DNA from: Escherichia coli
GTDB taxonomy: Bacteria > Pseudomonadota > Gammaproteobacteria > Enterobacterales > Enterobacteriaceae
Assembly (NCBI RefSeq): GCF_041886205.1
Contig: NZ_CP169029.1
DNA length: 64,000 bases
Strand: one strand, 5' to 3'
Positions 3,197 through 64,000 of this stretch are shown piece by piece (within the stretch, counting starts at the first letter, position 1; each line of letters starts with the position of its first letter). The notes beneath the pieces are model-generated. The model searched no databases and was not told the origin of the DNA. It was given only the letters and a program-made list of their open reading frames with translations. Both the position numbers and the translations under genes were made by a program.

Positions 3197-4351
3197 TTAC
3201 TTCAGACCGGCAGCATCGCGCAGCAGCTGCGCTTTGTCGGTTTTTTCCCACGGGAAATGTTCACGACCAAAGTGACCGTATGCTGCGGTTTCTTTGTAGA
3301 TCGGGTGCAGCAGATCCAGCATCTGAATCAGACCGTATGGGCGCAGGTCGAAGAACTCACGTACCAGCAGAGTCAGTTGTTCAGAAGGCACTTTCTCAGT
3401 ACCGAAAGTTTCTACCATGATGGAGGTCGGTTCAGCCACGCCGATTGCGTAGGAAACCTGAATTTCACAACGATCGGCCAGGCCAGCAGCAACGATGTTT
3501 TTCGCGACATAACGTGCTGCGTAGGCTGCGGAACGGTCCACTTTTGATGGATCTTTACCAGAGAATGCTCCGCCACCGTGACGTGCCATGCCGCCGTAGG
3601 TATCAACGATAATTTTACGACCAGTCAGACCGCAGTCACCCATCGGGCCACCGATAACAAAACGACCGGTCGGGTTGATGAAGAATTTGGTGGCAGAAGT
3701 CAGCCATTCAGCGGGCAGAATCGGCTTGATGATCTCTTCCATTACCGCTTCTTGCAACGATTTCTGGTCGATCTCTTCAGAGTGCTGAGTGGAAAGCACG
3801 ACAGCATCGATACCAACGATTTTGCCGTCGTCATACTGAAAAGTCACCTGGCTTTTCGCGTCCGGGCGCAGCCACGGCAGAGTGCCGTTTTTACGCACTT
3901 CAGCCTGACGCTGTACCAGACGGTGTGCATAGGTGATAGGTGCTGGCATCAGCACGTCGGTTTCATTAGTTGCGTAGCCAAACATCAGACCCTGGTCACC
4001 CGCGCCCTGTTCCAGCGGATCGGCACGGTCAACGCCCTGGTTGATGTCAGGAGACTGTTTGCCGATAGCGCTCAGAACCGCACAGGAGTTAGCGTCAAAG
4101 CCCATGTCGGAATGCACATAGCCAATTTCGCGAACGGTGTTACGGGTGATCTCTTCGATGTCTACCCAGGCGCTGGTGGTGATTTCGCCGCCAACTAAAA
4201 CCATGCCGGTTTTTACGTAGGTTTCGCAAGCAACGCGTGCTTTCGGATCCTGTTCGAGGATCGCGTCTAAAACGGCATCAGAAATTTGGTCAGCAATTTT
4301 GTCAGGATGCCCTTCAGAGACGGACTCGGACGTAAAAAGGTGTTTTGCCAT
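3197..4351 (-). CDS. metK: S-adenosylmethionine synthetase, 384 aa
   Basis: ORF track 3197..4363; true start is the ATG at rc 4349-4351 giving [32 protein letters not shown]; GHPDK and [12 protein letters not shown] motifs present. Confidence 0.97.
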
Positions 4352-10233: not shown

Positions 10234-12225
10234 ATGTCCTCACGTAAAGAGCTTGCCAATGCTATTCGTGCGCTGAGCATGGACGCAGTACAGAAAGCCA
10301 AATCCGGTCACCCGGGTGCCCCTATGGGTATGGCTGACATTGCCGAAGTCCTGTGGCGTGATTTCCTGAAACACAACCCGCAGAATCCGTCCTGGGCTGA
10401 CCGTGACCGCTTCGTGCTGTCCAACGGCCACGGCTCCATGCTGATCTACAGCCTGCTGCACCTCACCGGTTATGATCTGCCGATGGAAGAACTGAAAAAC
10501 TTCCGTCAGCTGCACTCTAAAACTCCGGGCCACCCGGAAGTGGGTTACACCGCTGGTGTGGAAACCACCACCGGTCCGCTGGGTCAGGGTATTGCCAACG
10601 CAGTCGGTATGGCGATTGCAGAAAAAACGCTGGCGGCGCAGTTTAACCGTCCGGGCCACGACATTGTCGACCACTACACCTACGCCTTCATGGGCGACGG
10701 CTGCATGATGGAAGGCATCTCCCACGAAGTTTGCTCTCTGGCGGGTACGCTGAAGCTGGGTAAACTGATTGCATTCTACGATGACAACGGTATTTCTATC
10801 GATGGTCACGTTGAAGGCTGGTTCACCGACGACACCGCAATGCGTTTCGAAGCTTACGGCTGGCACGTTATTCGCGACATCGACGGTCATGACGCGGCAT
10901 CCATCAAACGCGCAGTTGAAGAAGCGCGCGCAGTGACTGACAAACCGTCCCTGCTGATGTGCAAAACCATCATCGGTTTCGGTTCCCCGAACAAAGCCGG
11001 TACCCACGACTCCCACGGTGCGCCGCTGGGCGACGCTGAAATTGCCCTGACCCGCGAACAGCTGGGCTGGAAATACGCGCCGTTCGAAATCCCGTCTGAA
11101 ATCTATGCTCAGTGGGATGCGAAAGAAGTAGGCCAGGCGAAAGAATCTGCATGGAATGAGAAGTTTGCGGCTTACGCGAAAGCTTATCCGCAGGAAGCGG
11201 CTGAATTTACCCGCCGTATGAAAGGCGAAATGCCGTCTGACTTCGACGCCAAAGCGAAAGAGTTTATCGCTAAACTGCAGGCTAATCCGGCGAAAATCGC
11301 CAGCCGTAAAGCGTCTCAGAATGCTATCGAAGCTTTCGGTCCGCTGTTGCCGGAATTCCTCGGCGGTTCTGCTGACCTGGCACCATCTAACCTGACCCTG
11401 TGGTCTGGTTCTAAAGCAATCAACGAAGATGCTGCGGGTAACTACATCCACTACGGTGTTCGCGAGTTCGGTATGACCGCGATTGCTAACGGTATCTCCC
11501 TGCACGGTGGTTTCCTGCCGTACACCTCCACCTTCCTGATGTTCGTGGAATACGCACGTAACGCCGTACGTATGGCTGCGCTGATGAAACAGCGTCAGGT
11601 GATGGTTTACACCCACGACTCCATCGGTCTGGGCGAAGATGGCCCGACTCACCAGCCGGTAGAGCAGGTCGCTTCTCTGCGCGTAACCCCGAACATGTCT
11701 ACATGGCGTCCGTGTGACCAGGTTGAATCCGCGGTCGCGTGGAAATACGGTGTTGAGCGTCAGGACGGCCCGACTGCGCTGATCCTCTCCCGTCAGAACC
11801 TGGCGCAGCAGGAACGAACTGAAGAGCAACTGGCAAACATCGCGCGCGGTGGTTATGTGCTGAAAGACTGCGCCGGTCAGCCGGAACTGATTTTCATCGC
11901 TACCGGTTCAGAAGTTGAATTGGCGGTTGCTGCCTACGAAAAACTGACTGCTGAAGGCGTGAAAGCGCGCGTGGTGTCCATGCCGTCTACCGACGCATTT
12001 GACAAGCAGGATGCTGCTTACCGTGAATCCGTACTGCCGAAAGCGGTTACTGCACGCGTTGCTGTAGAAGCGGGTATTGCTGACTACTGGTACAAGTATG
12101 TTGGCCTGAACGGTGCTATCGTCGGTATGACCACCTTCGGTGAATCTGCTCCGGCAGAGCTGCTGTTTGAAGAGTTCGGCTTCACTGTTGATAACGTTGT
12201 TGCGAAAGCAAAAGCGCTGCTGTAA
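10234..12225 (+). CDS. tktA: Transketolase 1, 663 aa
   Basis: ORF track 10204..12225; ATG at 10234 gives [41 protein letters not shown]; TPP-binding motifs. Confidence 0.97.
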
Positions 12226-13004: not shown

Positions 13005-14393
13005 ATGGAAAACAAGTCTGCTCGTGCAAAGGTCCAGGCTTTTGGGGGCTTTTTGACTGCAATGGTCATCCCCAATATTGGTGCTTTTATTGCCTGGGGT
13101 TTTATTACTGCGTTATTTATTCCCACCGGTTGGCTGCCTAACGAACATTTCGCCAAAATTGTCGGCCCGATGATTACCTATTTATTGCCCGTGATGATTG
13201 GTTCTACCGGTGGTCATCTGGTCGGCGGTAAACGCGGCGCGGTCATGGGCGGAATAGGTACTATTGGTGTGATCGTCGGCGCAGAGATCCCGATGTTCCT
13301 TGGCTCAATGATTATGGGGCCGCTCGGTGGGCTGGTCATAAAATATGTTGATAAGGCACTGGAAAAACGCATACCTGCCGGTTTTGAGATGGTTATCAAT
13401 AACTTCTCATTAGGTATCGCGGGGATGCTCCTTTGTCTGCTGGGTTTTGAAGTGATCGGCCCGGCGGTGTTAATTGCCAATACTTTCGTCAAAGAGTGTA
13501 TTGAGGCGCTGGTACATGCGGGTTATCTGCCTCTGCTGTCAGTCATCAATGAACCGGCGAAAGTGCTTTTCCTTAATAATGCGATCGATCAGGGCGTCTA
13601 TTATCCGCTGGGAATGCAACAGGCTTCGGTTAACGGCAAATCCATCTTCTTTATGGTGGCCTCTAACCCAGGTCCGGGCCTGGGGCTGCTGCTGGCGTTT
13701 ACCTTGTTTGGTAAAGGGATGAGTAAACGTTCTGCGCCAGGGGCGATGATTATTCACTTCCTCGGTAGGATCCACGAACTGTATTTCCCGTATGTGCTGA
13801 TGAAGCCGCTGACCATTATTGCCATGATTGCGGGCGGTATGTCTGGCACCTGGATGTTTAACTTACTGGACGGTGGTCTGGTGGCTGGCCCAAGTCCGGG
13901 GTCTATCTTTGCTTACCTGGCACTGACGCCGAAAGGTTCGTTCCTGGCGACAATTGCCGGTGTTACGGTAGGTACCCTGGTGTCCTTTGCTATCACTTCG
14001 CTGATACTGAAGATGGAAAAAACGGTGGAAACGGAGAGCGAAGATGAGTTTGCTCAGTCAGCCAATGCGGTTAAGGCGATGAAACAAGAGGGTGCATTCT
14101 CGTTAAGTCGGGTTAAGCGTATCGCCTTTGTTTGCGATGCGGGGATGGGCTCCAGTGCGATGGGCGCGACCACCTTCCGTAAACGCCTGGAAAAAGCGGG
14201 GCTGGCAATTGAAGTAAAACATTACGCCATAGAAAACGTGCCTGCGGATGCGGATATCGTCGTTACTCATGCCAGTCTGGAAGGGCGCGTGAAACGTGTG
14301 ACGGATAAACCACTGATATTGATTAGTAACTATATTGGCGATCCAAAACTCGACACTTTATTTAATCAATTAACCGCCGAACATAAACACTGA
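13005..14393 (+). CDS. cmtA: PTS mannitol-type EIICB component (cryptic), 462 aa
   Basis: ORF track 13005..14393; polytopic EIIC followed by EIIB domain with the phosphorylatable Cys (FVCDAGMGSSAMG). Confidence 0.93.
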   Translation: MENKSARAKVQAFGGFLTAMVIPNIGAFIAWGFITALFIPTGWLPNEHFAKIVGPMITYLLPVMIGSTGGHLVGGKRGAVMGGIGTIGVIVGAEIPMFLGSMIMGPLGGLVIKYVDKALEKRIPAGFEMVINNFSLGIAGMLLCLLGFEVIGPAVLIANTFVKECIEALVHAGYLPLLSVINEPAKVLFLNNAIDQGVYYPLGMQQASVNGKSIFFMVASNPGPGLGLLLAFTLFGKGMSKRSAPGAMIIHFLGRIHELYFPYVLMKPLTIIAMIAGGMSGTWMFNLLDGGLVAGPSPGSIFAYLALTPKGSFLATIAGVTVGTLVSFAITSLILKMEKTVETESEDEFAQSANAVKAMKQEGAFSLSRVKRIAFVCDAGMGSSAMGATTFRKRLEKAGLAIEVKHYAIENVPADADIVVTHASLEGRVKRVTDKPLILISNYIGDPKLDTLFNQLTAEHKH

Positions 14394-14407
14394 TTACAGA
14401 GGTAAAA

Positions 14408-15685
14408 ATGAAAACCAAAGTTGCTGCTATTTATGGCAAGCGGGATGTCCGTCTGCGCGAATTTGAACTGCCAGAAATTACCGATAATGAACTTTTGGTG
14501 AGTGTAATTTCTGACAGTGTCTGTTTATCCACCTGGAAAGCGGCGTTACTCGGTAGTGAACATAAACGCGTACCCGACGATTTAGAAAATCATCCGGTCA
14601 TTACCGGGCATGAATGTGCCGGGGTTATTGTCGAAGTGGGTAAAAATCTCACTGGCAAATATAAAAAAGGCCAGCGTTTTGTATTGCAACCGGCGATGGG
14701 GTTACCAAGCGGATATTCAGCGGGCTACAGCTACGAATATTTTGGCGGTAACGCCACCTATATGATTATTCCCGAGATCGCCATTAATTTGGGCTGCGTA
14801 TTACCGTATCACGGCTCTTATTTTGCTGCGGCGTCGCTGGCAGAGCCTATGTGCTGCATTATTGGCGCTTATCATGCCAATTATCACACCACGCAATATG
14901 TTTATGAGCATCACATGGGCGTCAAACCTGGCGGCAATATTGCACTGCTGGCGTGTGCAGGTCCGATGGGCATTGGCGCTATCGATTACGCCATTAACGG
15001 CGGCATACAACCGTCGCGGGTGGTGGTGGTCGATATCGACGACAAACGTCTGGCGCAGGTACAGAAGCTGCTGCCGGTGGAACTGGCGGCCAGTAAAGGC
15101 ATTGAGCTGGTGTATGTGAATACCAAAGGGATGAGTGATCCTGTCCAGATGCTGCGGGCGCTGACAGGAGATGCCGGGTTCGATGACATTTTTGTTTATG
15201 CGGCGGTGCCTGCTGTCGTTGAGATGGCTGATGAATTACTGGCGGAAGATGGCTGTCTGAACTTCTTTGCCGGGCCGACGGATAAAAACTTCAAAGTGCC
15301 GTTTAATTTCTACAACGTCCATTACAACAGCACGCACGTAGTCGGTACATCCGGCGGTTCAACGGACGACATGAAAGAGGCGATTGCCCTTAGCGCCACA
15401 GGACAGTTACAGCCGTCGTTTATGGTGACCCATATTGGTGGCCTGGATGCGGTGCCAGAAACCGTGCTCAATCTGCCGGATATCCCTGGCGGTAAAAAAC
15501 TCATTTATAACGGCGTGACCATGCCGCTCACTGCCATTGCCGATTTTGCCGAAAAAGGCAAAACCGATCCGCTGTTTAAAGAGCTGGCGCGGCTGGTTGA
15601 GGAAACGCACGGCATCTGGAATGAACAGGCCGAGAAATATCTGCTGGCACAATTTGGCGTTGATATTGGGGAGGCCGCGCAATGA
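14408..15685 (+). CDS. yggP: Zn-dependent medium-chain polyol dehydrogenase-like protein, 425 aa
   Basis: ORF track 14408..15685; MDR/alcohol dehydrogenase-like catalytic and Rossmann regions; the stop overlaps the yggF start. Confidence 0.9.
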   Translation: MKTKVAAIYGKRDVRLREFELPEITDNELLVSVISDSVCLSTWKAALLGSEHKRVPDDLENHPVITGHECAGVIVEVGKNLTGKYKKGQRFVLQPAMGLPSGYSAGYSYEYFGGNATYMIIPEIAINLGCVLPYHGSYFAAASLAEPMCCIIGAYHANYHTTQYVYEHHMGVKPGGNIALLACAGPMGIGAIDYAINGGIQPSRVVVVDIDDKRLAQVQKLLPVELAASKGIELVYVNTKGMSDPVQMLRALTGDAGFDDIFVYAAVPAVVEMADELLAEDGCLNFFAGPTDKNFKVPFNFYNVHYNSTHVVGTSGGSTDDMKEAIALSATGQLQPSFMVTHIGGLDAVPETVLNLPDIPGGKKLIYNGVTMPLTAIADFAEKGKTDPLFKELARLVEETHGIWNEQAEKYLLAQFGVDIGEAAQ

Positions 15686-59436: not shown

Positions 59437-60885
59437 TTATTCTCCATGCTCATTTTTCTTCAGCTTGCGCATCAGAAGCCACATACGTACTGTCCTGACT
59501 TTTAAATCTTTATCAGAGACGGATTCCTTCACCAGGTCAGCATGATGCTGGTAGCCATTAAAGAAGACGTTCAGCACAACGGCGCTAAGGGTTGCGAGCA
59601 TAATGCCGCTATGCAGCAACGGTTGCAGTACGGCCGGTAACTTAGAAAAGAAATCGTGAGAGAGCGTCGGAGTCATGCCAACGCCGAGACTGATCGCCAC
59701 AATATAGAGGTTGTAACGGTTGGTGGTGTAGTTACAGCGCGACAGAATTCGAATCCCTGTCGCCAGTACCATGCCGAACATCACCAGACCAGCGCCGCCC
59801 AGCACAAATTGCGGAATGGAGGCTACCAGCACCGCCATTTTTGGCACCATGCCAAACAGGATTAATATAATTCCCGAAGAAATACACACCCAGCGGCTAT
59901 GAACGCGCGTCACGCTAACCAGGCCAACGTTTTGAGAAAATGACGTGTGGGGGAAGCTGTTAAACGTGCCGCCTATCATTGTCCCTACGCCATCGACACG
60001 CAGCCCGCGAATAATATCGTGTGAAGAGAGTTTACGACCGACTATTTCACCCAGTGCCAGGAACATCCCCATCGACTCGATAAACACGATGATTAACACG
60101 GCAGTCATGGTCAGAATGGAAACGGGATCGAAAATCGGCATACCAAACGACATCGGGGTGACAATCGCAAACCACGAGGCATCATGTAGCCCGGATAAAT
60201 TGACTTCATTCATCATCCACGAAAGTAAAAAGCCAAATACAATCCCCAGTAATACGGCGACGTTGGACATAAATCCTTTCGCATAGCGAGTAATGAGCAA
60301 GATAAAAATTAAGACGGCAAAGGAGATACCTAAATAAACGGGATTACCATATTGCGGATTCCCTTTACCTCCGGCGGCCCAGTCAATACCCACCTGAATG
60401 ATGCTAAGCCCGATAGAAGTAATAACCACACCGGTAACCAGTGGCGGGAATAAAGGCATCAAGCGACCGATAAGTGGCGCTAATAATGTGGTGATAAAAC
60501 CCGCGGCGATAGTGGCACCAAAGATCCCCAGCAGGCCGATATCCGGGTTCATCCCAATGGCTATCATTGGTGTTACAGCAGCAAAGGTCACCGACATAAT
60601 CACCGGCAGGCGGATCCCCATAAAGCGGCCGATACCGATACATTGCAATAATGTGACGATCCCGCAGCAAAAGAGATCCGAGCTAATGAGCATCGCAATA
60701 GCTTCTTTTGAGAGGCCCAGTCGGTCACCAATCATAAGAGGAACAGCGACTGCACCTGCGTACATGACAAGGACGTGTTGCAGACCGAGTATGATCAGCT
60801 TTCCTGGTGATAATATGCGGTCAACCTCATCAGTTGGGCGGTCTTGCCCAGAAGATGAGGGAAGTTGGGAATCTATGGCGCTCAT
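59437..60885 (-). CDS. uacT: NCS2-family nucleobase (uric acid/xanthine) permease, 482 aa
   Basis: ORF track 59437..61014 over-extends; ATG at rc 60883-60885 gives MSAIDSQLPSSSGQDRPTDEVDRILSPGKLIILGLQHVLVMYAGAVAVPLMIG. Confidence 0.92.
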   Translation of the reverse strand: MSAIDSQLPSSSGQDRPTDEVDRILSPGKLIILGLQHVLVMYAGAVAVPLMIGDRLGLSKEAIAMLISSDLFCCGIVTLLQCIGIGRFMGIRLPVIMSVTFAAVTPMIAIGMNPDIGLLGIFGATIAAGFITTLLAPLIGRLMPLFPPLVTGVVITSIGLSIIQVGIDWAAGGKGNPQYGNPVYLGISFAVLIFILLITRYAKGFMSNVAVLLGIVFGFLLSWMMNEVNLSGLHDASWFAIVTPMSFGMPIFDPVSILTMTAVLIIVFIESMGMFLALGEIVGRKLSSHDIIRGLRVDGVGTMIGGTFNSFPHTSFSQNVGLVSVTRVHSRWVCISSGIILILFGMVPKMAVLVASIPQFVLGGAGLVMFGMVLATGIRILSRCNYTTNRYNLYIVAISLGVGMTPTLSHDFFSKLPAVLQPLLHSGIMLATLSAVVLNVFFNGYQHHADLVKESVSDKDLKVRTVRMWLLMRKLKKNEHGE

Positions 60886-61320
60886 CAGTGTTTCTCCTTT
60901 CGCCCGCCAGAGTAAAAAGCAACCGTTTACGTTAATGAAACTGTCTAAACACATGCTCGTGGAGTGCCAGTTTTTGCGAGGAAGGGGAGTTAGAGACAGG
61001 AATTGCGGAGGCAATCACATAATCGTGGTTAAACCACGAAAATGAGAAGAGAACCTGACAATGGAATTATCTGTAATTTTCTCATATTGATATTTCATTA
61101 ATCATTCTGGCATGTCGCACTCTCGCATTTAATCGTTTTTATCTGGATAGCGCTCTTTTGATCGGCAATGTTGAAATAATGAAAGCGGCATAGATTGAGG
61201 GGCAATAATTTGAACTCAGTCGCAAAATTATAATTAAAACGGTCATGCTACCTAATATATGCCCGTTTATTGCATCGCGAAATTTGAGAAGACATAACTC
61301 ATTAAATGAAAGGGATGCAA

Positions 61321-61848
61321 ATGAATAAGTTTATCGCTGCTGAAGCTGCGGAATGTATAGGCTGTCATGCTTGTGAAATTGCCTGTGCGGTGGCACACAA
61401 TCAAGAAAACTGGCCGCTGAGTCACAGTGACTTTCGACCGCGTATCCACGTTGTAGGGAAAGGCCAGGCTGCGAATCCGGTGGCCTGCCATCACTGCAAC
61501 AATGCCCCTTGCGTTACGGCTTGTCCGGTTAATGCTCTGACTTTCCAGTCCGATAGCGTACAACTGGACGAGCAAAAATGTATTGGTTGTAAAAGATGCG
61601 CAATCGCTTGCCCCTTTGGCGTCGTTGAGATGGTCGATACGATTGCGCAGAAATGCGACCTTTGTAACCAGCGCAGTTCCGGCACGCAAGCCTGTATTGA
61701 AGTTTGCCCAACACAGGCGTTACGACTGATGGACGATAAAGGGTTACAGCAGATAAAGGTGGCCCGCCAGCGCAAAACGGCAGCAGGAAAAGCGTCATCA
61801 GACGCTCAGCCATCTCGCAGTGCAGCGTTGCTCCCCGTTAACTCGCGT
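61321..61848 (+). pseudogene. ygfT: N-terminal 4Fe-4S ferredoxin-domain remnant of a ygfT-like Fe-S oxidoreductase, truncated at an apparent deletion junction
   Basis: ATG at 61321 (RBS aaaggga) gives MNKFIAAEAAECIGCHACEIAC...CHHCNNAPCVTACP...CIGCKRCAIACP...CDLCNQ...CIEVCP (four Cys clusters). After about residue 176 the frame runs into the reverse complement of ygeW and translates to low-complexity sequence until the stop at 62046. The expected GltD-like flavin/NAD domain is absent. Confidence 0.55.
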
Positions 61849-62827
61849 ACAGGGCTTCGCCATCACGGGTCAGTTCCATCATCTCTTCAGTACAATGCCA
61901 GTCTTTGTGTTGCGCGTTCTGTGCCAGACACTGTTTTTCCAGTGCTTTTAAGCCTTCGTGATCGTTCGCACGCAGCAATTCAGTACGCTCTTCCATCACT
62001 TTGTAAGGTGCCCATGACTTCGGATAAACGATGTCTGCGTCTTTGAAGGCTTCTTCCATGCTGGTGACCTGACGGAAGCTACCACCGGAGGCTTTAGCAT
62101 TGTTTTTCGCCACTTCAACCACATCCGGGATCAGGTCGTAGCCTTCCGGATGGGCCAGGGTGACATCCATACCGAAGCGAGTCATCAGACCGATGATGCC
62201 TTGTGGTACAGAGAGCGGTTTGCCATAGCTTGGAGAGTAGGCCCAGGTCATGGCGATTTTTTTACCTTTCAGGTTTTCCAGTGAACCAAAGTGTTCACGT
62301 AACCACGCGAGGTCAGCCATTGACTGAGTCGGGTGGTCAATATCGCATTGCAGGTTCACTAAAGCCGGACGCTGTGGCAGTACACCCTGCTTGTAACCGT
62401 CATCAAGTGCAGCGCCAACTTCACGCATATAGGCGTTGCCTGCGCCCAGATACATATCGTCGCGAATACCAATAGCGTCGGCGCAGAAGGAGATCATATT
62501 GGCGGTTTCACGCACGGTTTCGCCGTGAGCGATTTGTGATTTGCCTTCGTCGAGATCTTGTTGTGCAAGGCCGAGCAGGTTAAGCGCGGAAGCATAAGAG
62601 AAGCGGGTACGGGTGGAGTTGTCGCGGAATACGGAAATACCTAATCCACTATTAAAGACTTTGGTTGAGATGTTTTCAGCACGCAGTGCTTTTAATGCTG
62701 CGGCAACGTCCAGTACTTGTTTCAGTTCATCTGGCGTCTGTTCCCACGTTAACAAAAAATCTTTCTCGTGAAGGTGAGAGGTCAGCGAATTGATATCCTT
62801 AATCAGCTCATTAACAGTTTTCATCAT
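61838..62827 (-). pseudogene. ygeW: Carbamoyltransferase (YgeW-like) lacking its C-terminal segment
   Basis: ORF track 61838..62827 minus (329 aa); contains the carbamoyl-phosphate-binding STRTR motif but ends ...TRDGEALYAS* with no HxLP-type C-terminal motif. Full-length YgeW is about 396 aa as recalled. Confidence 0.6.
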
Positions 62828-63302
62828 AAAGTCCCGGTAGTGGAATGACAGGCAAAGTGGTTTATTTCACTGTGACTTGCCAAAGTGATTGGTGTTTTCA
62901 CAGCTATACCTGGGACTAACAATAAGTGTGCCAGAATTATCCACGGGGCTGCAAAAGACTAATTTGACGGATAATGTGTGGGGTTGATCACAAATTGATG
63001 CCAGCTTCCGGTTGTTTGTAAAATACGAAAACGTTTGGCTTTTTTTATCGCGTTATTTATTTGCTGCTAAGTATCAGAAATAAGATAAAGGGACAGGCTA
63101 TCCCTCGTCAGTTTGATAAACTCACTGCCGTAATTCTCATATTGATATAGAAATGTGATATCTCTTCCATAATTTCATTAGAAAGTGATAAAAATCTTAT
63201 GTTTTTATCAAAGCCAATTTCGCCTGAGTTAATATCATCATGATCTGTGAACCATCAACGTCTTCAATGATCGACTTTTAAGTAAGTCTGGAAGGTAAAG
63301 CT

Positions 63303-64000
63303 ATGGAGCTTGCTACTACGCAGTCAGTATTGATGCAAATTCAACCGACAATTCAGCGTTTTGCCAGAATGCTTGCCAGCGTTTTGCAGCTTGAGGTTGA
63401 GATCGTTGATGAAAACTTGTGTCGCGTTGCCGGAACGGGCGCGTATGGGAAGTTTCTTGGTCGCCAGTTGAGCGGCAACTCACGCCTGCTCCGCCACGTC
63501 CTGGAAACGAAAACTGAAAAAGTTGTGACACAGTCTCGCTTCGATCCCCTTTGCGAAGGTTGCGATAGTAAAGAAAATTGCCGCGAAAAAGCATTTCTGG
63601 GTACGCCTGTCATTTTACAGGATCGTTGTGTTGGGGTGATAAGTTTGATTGCCGTTACCCACGAGCAACAAGAGCATATCAGTGATAATTTACGCGAATT
63701 TTCTGATTATGTTCGCCATATATCCACCATTTTTGTTTCGAAACTTCTGGAGGATCAGGGGCCAGGAGATAACATCAGTAAAATATTCGCGACCATGATC
63801 GATAATATGGATCAGGGCGTATTAGTTGTTGATGATGAAAGTCGGGTTCAGTTTGTTAATCAGACTGCCTTAAAAACACTTGGTGTTGTACAAAATAATA
63901 TTATTGGGAAACCTATCCGTTTCAGACCATTAACATTTGAGAGTAATTTTACTCATGGACATATGCAGCATATTGTTTCGTGGGACGATAAAAGTGAATT
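63303..64000 (+). CDS. ygeV: Sigma54-dependent transcriptional activator YgeV, N-terminal part (continues beyond window)
   Basis: ATG at 63303 opens a frame with no stop to the window end (MELATTQSVLMQIQPTIQRFARMLASVLQLEVEIVDENLCRVAGTGAYGKFLGRQL...); divergent from ygeW as in K-12. Not in ORF track because it lacks a stop. Confidence 0.85.
   Translation, partial: MELATTQSVLMQIQPTIQRFARMLASVLQLEVEIVDENLCRVAGTGAYGKFLGRQLSGNSRLLRHVLETKTEKVVTQSRFDPLCEGCDSKENCREKAFLGTPVILQDRCVGVISLIAVTHEQQEHISDNLREFSDYVRHISTIFVSKLLEDQGPGDNISKIFATMIDNMDQGVLVVDDESRVQFVNQTALKTLGVVQNNIIGKPIRFRPLTFESNFTHGHMQHIVSWDDKSE

Follow-up and report, generated by a model that had tools for sequence, protein, structure and literature searches.

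The reductive pathway of uric acid degradation in Escherichia coli consists of XdhD-YgfM, YgfK, SsnA, HyuA, YgeW/YqeA, YgeY, and YgeX (10.1101/2025.05.19.654654), and anaerobic consumption of urate needs both ygeV and ygfT, according to the citation of Iwadate and Kato (2019) given in 10.1101/2022.07.24.501321. The genes of this anaerobic cluster are of interest for urate disposal in the gut and for gout probiotics. Sigma-54 ChIP-seq sites have been located upstream of xdhA, ygeW, ygfK, and ygfT (PMC4591121), and a gSELEX peak falls in the spacer between ygeV and ygeW (PMC8743547). The YgeV iModulon takes in xdhABC, ygfT, and uacT (PMC10602906, PMC12132413); its gene list was taken here from the table in PMC12132413. 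Within this network of other E. coli strains, YgeV would activate the sigma-54 promoters of xdhABC, ygeWXY-hyuA-yqeA, ygfK-ssnA-ygfM-xdhD, and ygfT-ygfS, most likely by acting from boxes of the form TATCA-N3-TGA(T/G)A upstream of each promoter. In a study of the same regulator under the name IsrR, ygeV is called an orphan response regulator, and effects on LEE expression in EHEC and Citrobacter rodentium are reported (PMC9426417).

Two other described regulators are close to YgeV in different respects. DioR of Clostridiales (PMC6615313) is an enhancer-binding protein predicted for dpaL, ygeW-ygfK-ssnA-ygeY, yqeB, yqeC, and xdhC-type genes, and thus represents sigma-54 control of the same pathway in a distant phylum, but both the protein lineage and the operator differ from those of YgeV. 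DhaR of E. coli has the same four-domain order as YgeV, GAF-PAS-AAA+-HTH. The closest system of all is YgeV of K-12 itself (b2869; IsrR in EHEC), which is the same gene of 592 amino acids with one substitution (N180S), and which is alike in the divergence from ygeW, the sigma-54 promoter, and the spacer. The locus described below differs from that of K-12 by the deletion or truncation of ygfT-ygfS and of the operons headed by ygeW and ygfK, leaving xdhABC and uacT alone of the co-regulated set.

Deletion between ygeW and ygfT

The window, by which the whole stretch of 64,000 nucleotides analyzed is meant, matched at 100% the chromosome of E. coli wlxctx60 (NZ_AP045833.1; isolated in Gifu, Japan, from the faeces of an Asian black bear), and is oriented as the reverse complement of the K-12 map at about 65 min. 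Since its identity to K-12 is above 99%, chance is not an issue for the matches of the window. By BLAST against K-12, two abutting blocks were obtained, one (window 61000-61853) corresponding to the uacT/ygfT side and the other (61847-64000) to the ygeW/ygeV side. The segment from the 3' end of ygeW to the 3' part of ygfT is missing between them, and its size is 23,163 bp as measured on K-12 and 22,982 bp as measured on strain 6EVA (human faeces, Singapore), the closest genome, in which the full cluster is present. The genes at and around the junction are as follows.

59437-60885, minus strand: uacT (urate:H+ symporter), intact; WP_001295374.1, the same accession as in 6EVA
61321-62046, plus strand: ygfT' pseudogene; 176 native codons, which cover the ferredoxin-like 4Fe-4S part, followed by 65 unrelated ones where the frame enters the antisense of ygeW'
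61838-62827, minus strand: ygeW' pseudogene, in which 327 native codons run into the antisense of ygfT' and end there with Ala-Ser-stop
61847-61849: deletion junction; GTA microhomology, with six of seven matches over GTAcAGG and without inserted DNA or IS
63303-64000, plus strand: ygeV (isrR); ATG at 63303 and the first 232 codons, the gene continuing past the window to 592 amino acids

The genes lost as a whole are ygeX/dpaL, ygeY, hyuA, yqeA, yqeB, yqeC, mocA, ygfK, ssnA, ygfM, xdhD, xanQ, guaD, ghxQ, and ygfS, while ygeW has lost its 3' end and ygfT the part after codon 176. Both remnants are annotated by NCBI as partial pseudogenes in the source genome. The first 327 residues of ygeW' are the same as those of K-12 YgeW (396 amino acids) without any difference, but 69 residues are gone from the C-terminus and with them the HCLP motif, and the Pfam match to OTCace is confined to positions 20-107 of the 157-position profile. 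The preliminary description, made from the letters of this DNA, had noted a truncated ygeW followed by a loss of the downstream genes, and had placed ygeV, in its N-terminal part, from 63303 onward and divergent from ygeW; both observations agree with the present comparison, ygeW being read on the minus strand from 62827 and ygeV on the plus strand.

The joint is located in unique coding sequence, with neither repeat nor IS, and GTA is common to both parental sequences. A contiguous loss relative to a close relative, a short match at the breakpoint, and the lack of a mobile element or filler DNA are the marks of microhomology-mediated (illegitimate) deletion. Illegitimate recombination at this 3-bp microhomology would have fused codon 327 of ygeW to the antisense of codon 176 of ygfT, and such a one-step event would have removed about 23 kb carrying the anaerobic (reductive, 2,8-dioxopurine) uric acid degradation genes, the purine transporters, guanine deaminase, and the MCD-cofactor genes mocA, yqeB, and yqeC. 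In this process ygeV would have been spared simply by its position outside the deleted interval.

The junction was found in 1 of 5,426 complete E. coli genomes. A 40-nt pattern spanning the junction gave no match in metagenome contigs, a result that neither confirms nor contradicts the junction. On the ygeV/xdh side, wlxctx60 and 6EVA show no mismatch in 7,648 bp, and on the other side 10 differences in 15,378 positions; the protein accessions of YgeV, XdhA, XdhB, XdhC, and UacT are identical in the two strains. Taken together, the single occurrence among complete genomes, the lack of metagenome contigs with the junction, and the near-identical relative with the full cluster indicate that the deletion is recent and private, leaving no time for decay or rewiring of ygeV.

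The occurrence in one genome and in no metagenome contig would also be expected if the junction were an artefact of assembly, the true genome having an intact ygeW operon. Misassembly is, however, highly improbable, because the two sides meet cleanly at a microhomology within unique sequence, not at a repeat or IS where assemblers collapse, and because the record is a closed chromosome of 4.65 Mb. In addition, the same cluster is commonly deleted in other closed genomes (see below), and no near-identical copy of the cluster core is present anywhere in the assembly. The movement of the cluster to another place in the genome was rejected on the same ground, since wlxctx60 was not among the top matches to the cluster core, among which its relative 6EVA was included; this search speaks to near-identical copies, a divergent copy of less than 99.2% identity being outside its reach.

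All these observations make it very likely that wlxctx60 carries a recent, one-step, private deletion, which left an intact canonical ygeV still able to act on the remaining purine and urate promoters. The feature is an ordinary strain-specific deletion allele of an already known locus with the adjoining regulator unchanged, and as a single-strain allele it is of small weight in itself.

YgeV protein and retained control elements

The 232 codons of ygeV in the window are identical to the start of the annotated YgeV of 592 amino acids (WP_000417808.1). The gene is complete past the window and is followed by intact xdhCBA, and the reading frame carries all the motifs of a bacterial enhancer-binding protein, so that the disruption downstream considered in the preliminary description does not exist. 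As compared with K-12, the gene differs at 12 nucleotides and the protein at one residue (N180S). The domains of YgeV are arranged in the order of GAF-like, PAS, AAA+ sigma-54 interaction domain, and HTH_8. By Pfam, Sigma54_activat was assigned to residues 272-439 (E = 8e-71) and the Fis-type HTH (HTH_8) to 548-587 (E = 1.4e-13). Walker A (GESGTGKE, 300-307), Walker B (LFLDE, 369-373), the arginine finger (REDLFYRL at 427), and the GAFTGA loop for sigma-54 contact (347-352) are all present and, like the HTH, are encoded past the end of the window, and the PDB matches are NtrC, FleQ, ZraR, and PspF with E values of about 1e-70. The AAA+ domain carrying both Walker motifs and the arginine finger, the GAFTGA loop, and the C-terminal HTH, together with a conserved -24/-12 promoter and a palindromic box upstream as the candidate binding site, altogether indicate that YgeV belongs to the bacterial enhancer-binding proteins. 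The receiver domain of two-component response regulators was not found, as no match to Response_reg was obtained with Pfam or NCBIfam.

The first 160 residues gave no family by Pfam, NCBIfam, or phmmer against PDB. The AlphaFold2 model of this N-terminus is moderate (pLDDT 62.8), and Foldseek led to a generic GAF-plus-PAS arrangement like DhaR(N), the top specific matches being the DhaR(N) structures 4lrx, 4lry, and 4lrz; no ligand can be inferred. The NCBIfam model of DhaR aligned to residues 97-589 of YgeV with 232 bits against the cut-off of 551, indicating that YgeV is not an equivalog of DhaR. Unlike DhaR, YgeV retains GAFTGA and is expected to act at sigma-54 promoters, and its GAF-like domain carries four invariant cysteines (C84, C87, C93, and C109).

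The control elements retained on both sides of the junction are listed below. The divergent spacer between ygeW and ygeV was aligned with 38 other Enterobacteriaceae spacers and that of K-12.

60954-60969, minus strand: TGGCACTCCACGAGCA, a candidate sigma-54-like motif detected by scan, at a distance of 69 nt upstream of the start codon of uacT
61080-61092: TCTCATATTGATA, a candidate YgeV box between uacT and ygfT, which precedes the -24 element of PygfT by about 174 bp and the sigma-54-like motif of uacT by about 118 bp
61258-61274, plus strand: TATGCCCGTTTATTGCA, a sigma-54 binding site ahead of ygfT with exactly the sequence of ChIP-seq site OS32 (PMC4591121), predicted to drive ygfT' alone
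62828-63302: divergent regulatory spacer between ygeW and ygeV, 475 bp, fully kept
62918-62933, minus strand: ygeW sigma-54 promoter (-24/-12), TGGCACACTTATTGTT, detected by scan and predicted to drive the truncated ygeW' alone
62977-62992: CRP-like site, TGTGATCAACCCCACA on the minus strand, a conserved block between the boxes and the sigma-54 promoter
63148-63160 and 63106-63118: two weaker box-like elements flanking box 1, in the conserved blocks 'aTCA.CA.TT' and 'tTTATCAa.tTG'
63135-63147: candidate YgeV box 1, TCTCATATTGATA, reading TATCAATATGAGA on the minus strand and located about 209 bp ahead of the -24 element of ygeW
63233-63245: candidate YgeV box 2, TATCATCATGATC, located 58-70 bp ahead of the start codon of ygeV

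Across the aligned spacers the ygeW sigma-54 promoter shows a conservation of 90% or more, and its sequence is that of ChIP-seq site OS30 (PMC4591121). No block of the spacer is more conserved than box 1, which is part of an exact 15-mer in common with the uacT/ygfT spacer. Box 2 may play an autoregulatory role. A native Crp site has been mentioned for the ygeW-ygeV spacer (10.1101/2025.05.19.654654), and its placement at exactly 62977-62992 is suggested by the CRP-like block. The sigma-54 scans recovered three of the four ChIP-seq sequences (xdhA, ygeW, and ygfK); the fourth, at ygfT, scores low and escaped the scans, and was recognized in the window afterwards from its published sequence. 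The motif TGGCACTCCACGAGCA had been considered as the uacT sigma-54 promoter and was demoted to a candidate, as no ChIP-seq site is given for it in PMC4591121; for this reason the box shared by uacT and ygfT was assigned primarily to PygfT. Simple scans of 60800-63400 for sigma-70 promoters and terminators gave fewer matches than shuffled sequences and were not used.

Candidate YgeV operator and the remaining regulon

The palindromic box TATCA-N3-TGA(T/G)A is common to the four regulatory regions of xdhA, ygeW, ygfK, and ygfT, and is located 105-210 bp upstream of the -24 element of each cluster promoter, which is the usual distance of enhancers. In 44 kb of K-12 a total of six boxes were detected against 0.5 expected, five of the six being located in the four regulatory spacers. 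The 64-kb window contains three boxes, all in the ygeW'/ygeV and uacT/ygfT' spacers, and two of them are exact 13-mers. The comparison was extended to 41 loci with YgeV orthologues in other Enterobacteriaceae. The gene ygeV is divergent from ygeW-ygeX-ygeY-hyuA-yqeA in all the 39 loci of other species with upstream flank, and the blocks of the spacer that are conserved across these species are the ygeW sigma-54 promoter, the CRP-like site, and the box. The box is present in each of 36 spacers of other species, at a density of 2.05 per kb as compared with 0.09 per kb elsewhere, and those found elsewhere concentrate upstream of ygfK and xdhA. At xdhA, 20 genomes have a conserved sigma-54 promoter with two boxes ahead of it. 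This distribution gives good support to the prediction that YgeV binds to the TATCA-N3-TGA(T/G)A box, and provides a candidate operator of YgeV for direct testing.

Three of the four sigma-54 promoters, PxdhA, PygeW, and PygfT, are kept in wlxctx60. The xdhABC operon is intact with its own promoter and boxes, and uacT is also intact. PygeW and PygfT are convergent at a distance of about 1.6 kb, each standing before a gene stump. YgeV in wlxctx60 could therefore still act on PxdhA, the promoter of an intact operon, and perhaps on uacT, whose control by YgeV is a candidate relationship suggested by iModulon co-expression and the sigma-54-like motif, while PygeW and PygfT would fire into each other across the two stumps.

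The preliminary description called ygeV an orphaned activator, a term which holds in part. At the level of DNA targets it is an overstatement, because ygeW is one of several targets and xdhABC and uacT are kept. In the functional sense the idea of a leftover regulator is fair, as nine of the 13 iModulon genes that belong to the cluster have been removed or cut short, and the deletion includes mocA and yqeB. The former makes the MCD cofactor of xanthine-oxidase-family enzymes, and the latter is a suspected XdhC-like chaperone for XdhABC and XdhD (PMC2997495). The loss of both genes suggests that XdhABC is probably inactive in wlxctx60, and urate imported by UacT would have no catabolic route. 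The regulon of YgeV in this strain is thus probably mostly dead with respect to function.

It was further proposed that ygeV may be a regulatory relic, or may have been rewired to other targets. A relic regulator should have lost all its cognate target operons, and should persist in this state in a lineage with accompanying decay. Neither was observed here, since xdhABC and uacT are intact, the junction is private to a single genome, and YgeV is identical to that of 6EVA which bears the cluster, the interval being too short for decay. For rewiring after the loss of the operon, nothing specific could be raised beyond the fact that ygeV is intact and presumably expressed. The protein is that of 6EVA, the ygeV side including the spacer is identical over 7.6 kb, the boxes of the 64-kb window are restricted to two native spacers, and a deletion confined to one strain gives regulation no time to evolve; the probability of rewiring is accordingly close to nil. 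In place of both proposals, the recent deletion with an unchanged regulator is retained.

A wider proposal, for and against which the chances appear about even, is that the box is a hitherto undescribed YgeV operator of a four-promoter sigma-54 regulon for purine and urate across Enterobacteriaceae, and that wlxctx60 and two other strains described below, ET358 and NR2550, represent natural backgrounds with the activator and promoters but without the pathway, in which an inducer (perhaps urate taken up via UacT and not degraded) keeps YgeV on. If this is true, both the signal of YgeV and any targets outside the cluster of the IsrR type would be directly testable in such strains.

Fate of ygeV in other losses of the cluster

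The 23-kb segment is near-core in E. coli, at least 80% of it being present in 5,143 of the 5,426 genomes. No part of it is present in 221 genomes, about 4% of the complete genomes, and 143 genomes lack the whole ygeV region. With a synthetic query, in which the uacT side was joined to the ygeV side, a total of 60 genomes were identified with both sides within about 3 kb. The full ygeV is kept in three of these 60, wlxctx60, ET358, and NR2550. The latter two carry IS1 junctions with the complete spacer and full ygeV retained, and their cluster losses are independent. In the other 57 the 5' end of ygeV is cut by an IS1-associated deletion, one class having in addition an internal stop, and in Z503 and NCTC9064 ygeV was lost together with the cluster. 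Two further E. coli records, in which the match to ygeV begins at the edge of the locus, were left out of this comparison, as their apparent truncation is a boundary of the record. Independent losses of the same cluster have thus occurred in other E. coli strains, in most cases through IS1.

Two readings of the survival of ygeV in wlxctx60 can be weighed against this survey. One is that ygeV has been kept by selection through targets besides the lost cluster (xdhABC, uacT, or indole-linked ones), the sparing endpoint then being no accident. The intact uacT and xdhABC, the latter with a conserved sigma-54 promoter and two boxes, the effects of IsrR on LEE expression and C. rodentium virulence (PMC9426417), and the independent losses in ET358 and NR2550, where the full ygeV and the whole spacer are held, would fit with such selection. 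This reading is nevertheless unlikely. The deletion is too recent for selection to act, XdhABC probably cannot mature after the deletion of mocA and yqeB (PMC2997495), and wlxctx60 has a genome of the commensal type, with no LEE seen in the region examined. Moreover, the truncation or removal of ygeV in most of the independent losses, that is, in 57 of the 60 genomes with uacT next to ygeV, in Z503 and NCTC9064, and in the 143 genomes without the region, indicates that ygeV is dispensable once the cluster is gone. In view of the IsrR study YgeV may have targets outside the cluster, but nothing in this analysis points to them.

The other reading, that the survival of ygeV in wlxctx60 is an accident of the breakpoint, is the one for which the survey argues, and ygeV would then be neutral baggage in this strain. 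The usual truncation or loss of ygeV together with the cluster also argues that the cluster is its principal function.

The losses mediated by IS1 (ET358, NR2550, the 2018-02-2CC clade, PSS-04, Z503, and NCTC9064) are the same as that of wlxctx60 in the interval removed between ygeW and ygfT, but they carry a copy of IS1 and usually cut or remove ygeV, whereas the joint of wlxctx60 is IS-free and flanked by the stumps of ygeW and ygfT. The uricolytic cluster is therefore a recurrent target of IS1 deletion in E. coli.

Candidate YgeV boxes and sigma-54 promoters around the deletion

All four sigma-54 promoters of the purine/urate cluster detected by ChIP-seq have a palindromic box, TATCA-N3-TGA(T/G)A, located 105-210 bp upstream, and this box is kept in every spacer (36/36) of other Enterobacteriaceae. 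The box is found at positions 4104, 4125, 9845, 9943, 19791, and 35161 of the K-12 locus (L001), and three copies are present within the window together with the following promoter elements.

60954-60969, minus strand: sigma-54-like -24/-12 motif TGGCACTCCACGAGCA, 69 nt upstream of uacT
61080-61092: box
61258-61274, plus strand: sigma-54 promoter of ygfT
62918-62933, minus strand: sigma-54 promoter of ygeW
63135-63147: box
63233-63245: box

The box is a candidate for the YgeV operator, a description of which was not found in the literature searched. The motif upstream of uacT lies about 118 bp from a box, and is missing from the published sigma-54 ChIP-seq sites.

The loss of the cluster has left the ygfT and ygeW sigma-54 promoters convergent with about 1.6 kb between them, and the truncated open reading frames ygeW' and ygfT' overlap, the end of each being antisense of the other. 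Activation of both promoters by YgeV would lead to convergent, dead-end transcription.

Gene losses at the cluster in E. coli

Between ygeW' and ygfT' (junction at 61847), mocA (MCD cofactor cytidylyltransferase), yqeB (XdhC-like chaperone), and yqeC are all absent, and therefore neither the enzyme of the kept xdhABC genes nor that of paoABC, encoded elsewhere, is likely to mature, in which case the strain would be devoid of all MCD-dependent molybdoenzyme activity.

Many independent deletions have removed the purine/urate cluster in E. coli, almost all of them leaving an IS1 copy where the ends meet, and the cluster is absent from 221 of the 5,426 complete genomes; uacT was brought beside ygeV, mostly truncated, in 60 genomes. 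Genomes with the cluster deleted include Z503 (L045), NCTC9064 (L046), ET358 (L047), NR2550 (L048), 2018-02-2CC (L049), and PSS-04 (L050). In strain EN-1077 (genome match H33, NZ_CP159209.1), with 99.8% identity in this region, an IS5 family transposase is annotated between ygeV and ygeW, which is another route to uncouple the activator from the divergent operon.

YgeV in other genera and its sensor region

In Raoultella and Enterobacter sp. 10-1 (loci L027, L029, and L022), xdhCBA is absent downstream of ygeV, and the box TATCACTCTGAGA directly follows ygeV (around 11828 in L022). A strong sigma-54 promoter, TGGCACCGTTCTTGCC, is located about 160 bp past the box in L027 and L029, where the two elements lie around 11814-11992; the promoter scan of L022 did not return this promoter. 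This arrangement suggests that a different operon is under the control of YgeV in these bacteria.

The sensor region of YgeV (residues 1-270; 14004-14813 of the wlxctx60 locus, L002) matched no family in Pfam or NCBIfam, and was modelled as a GAF-like plus PAS architecture. Four cysteines, C84, C87, C93, and C109 (CxxCx5C plus C), are invariant among 24 species (alignment A1), hinting at a metal or redox cofactor. YgeV, labelled an "orphan response regulator" (PMC9426417), has no receiver domain.

Outside the window, on the far side of xdhA/actS/glyU, positions 22667-26554 of L002 hold what is left of the ETT2 type III secretion cluster, several genes being frameshifted or partial. Decayed ETT2 is the usual state in E. 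coli.
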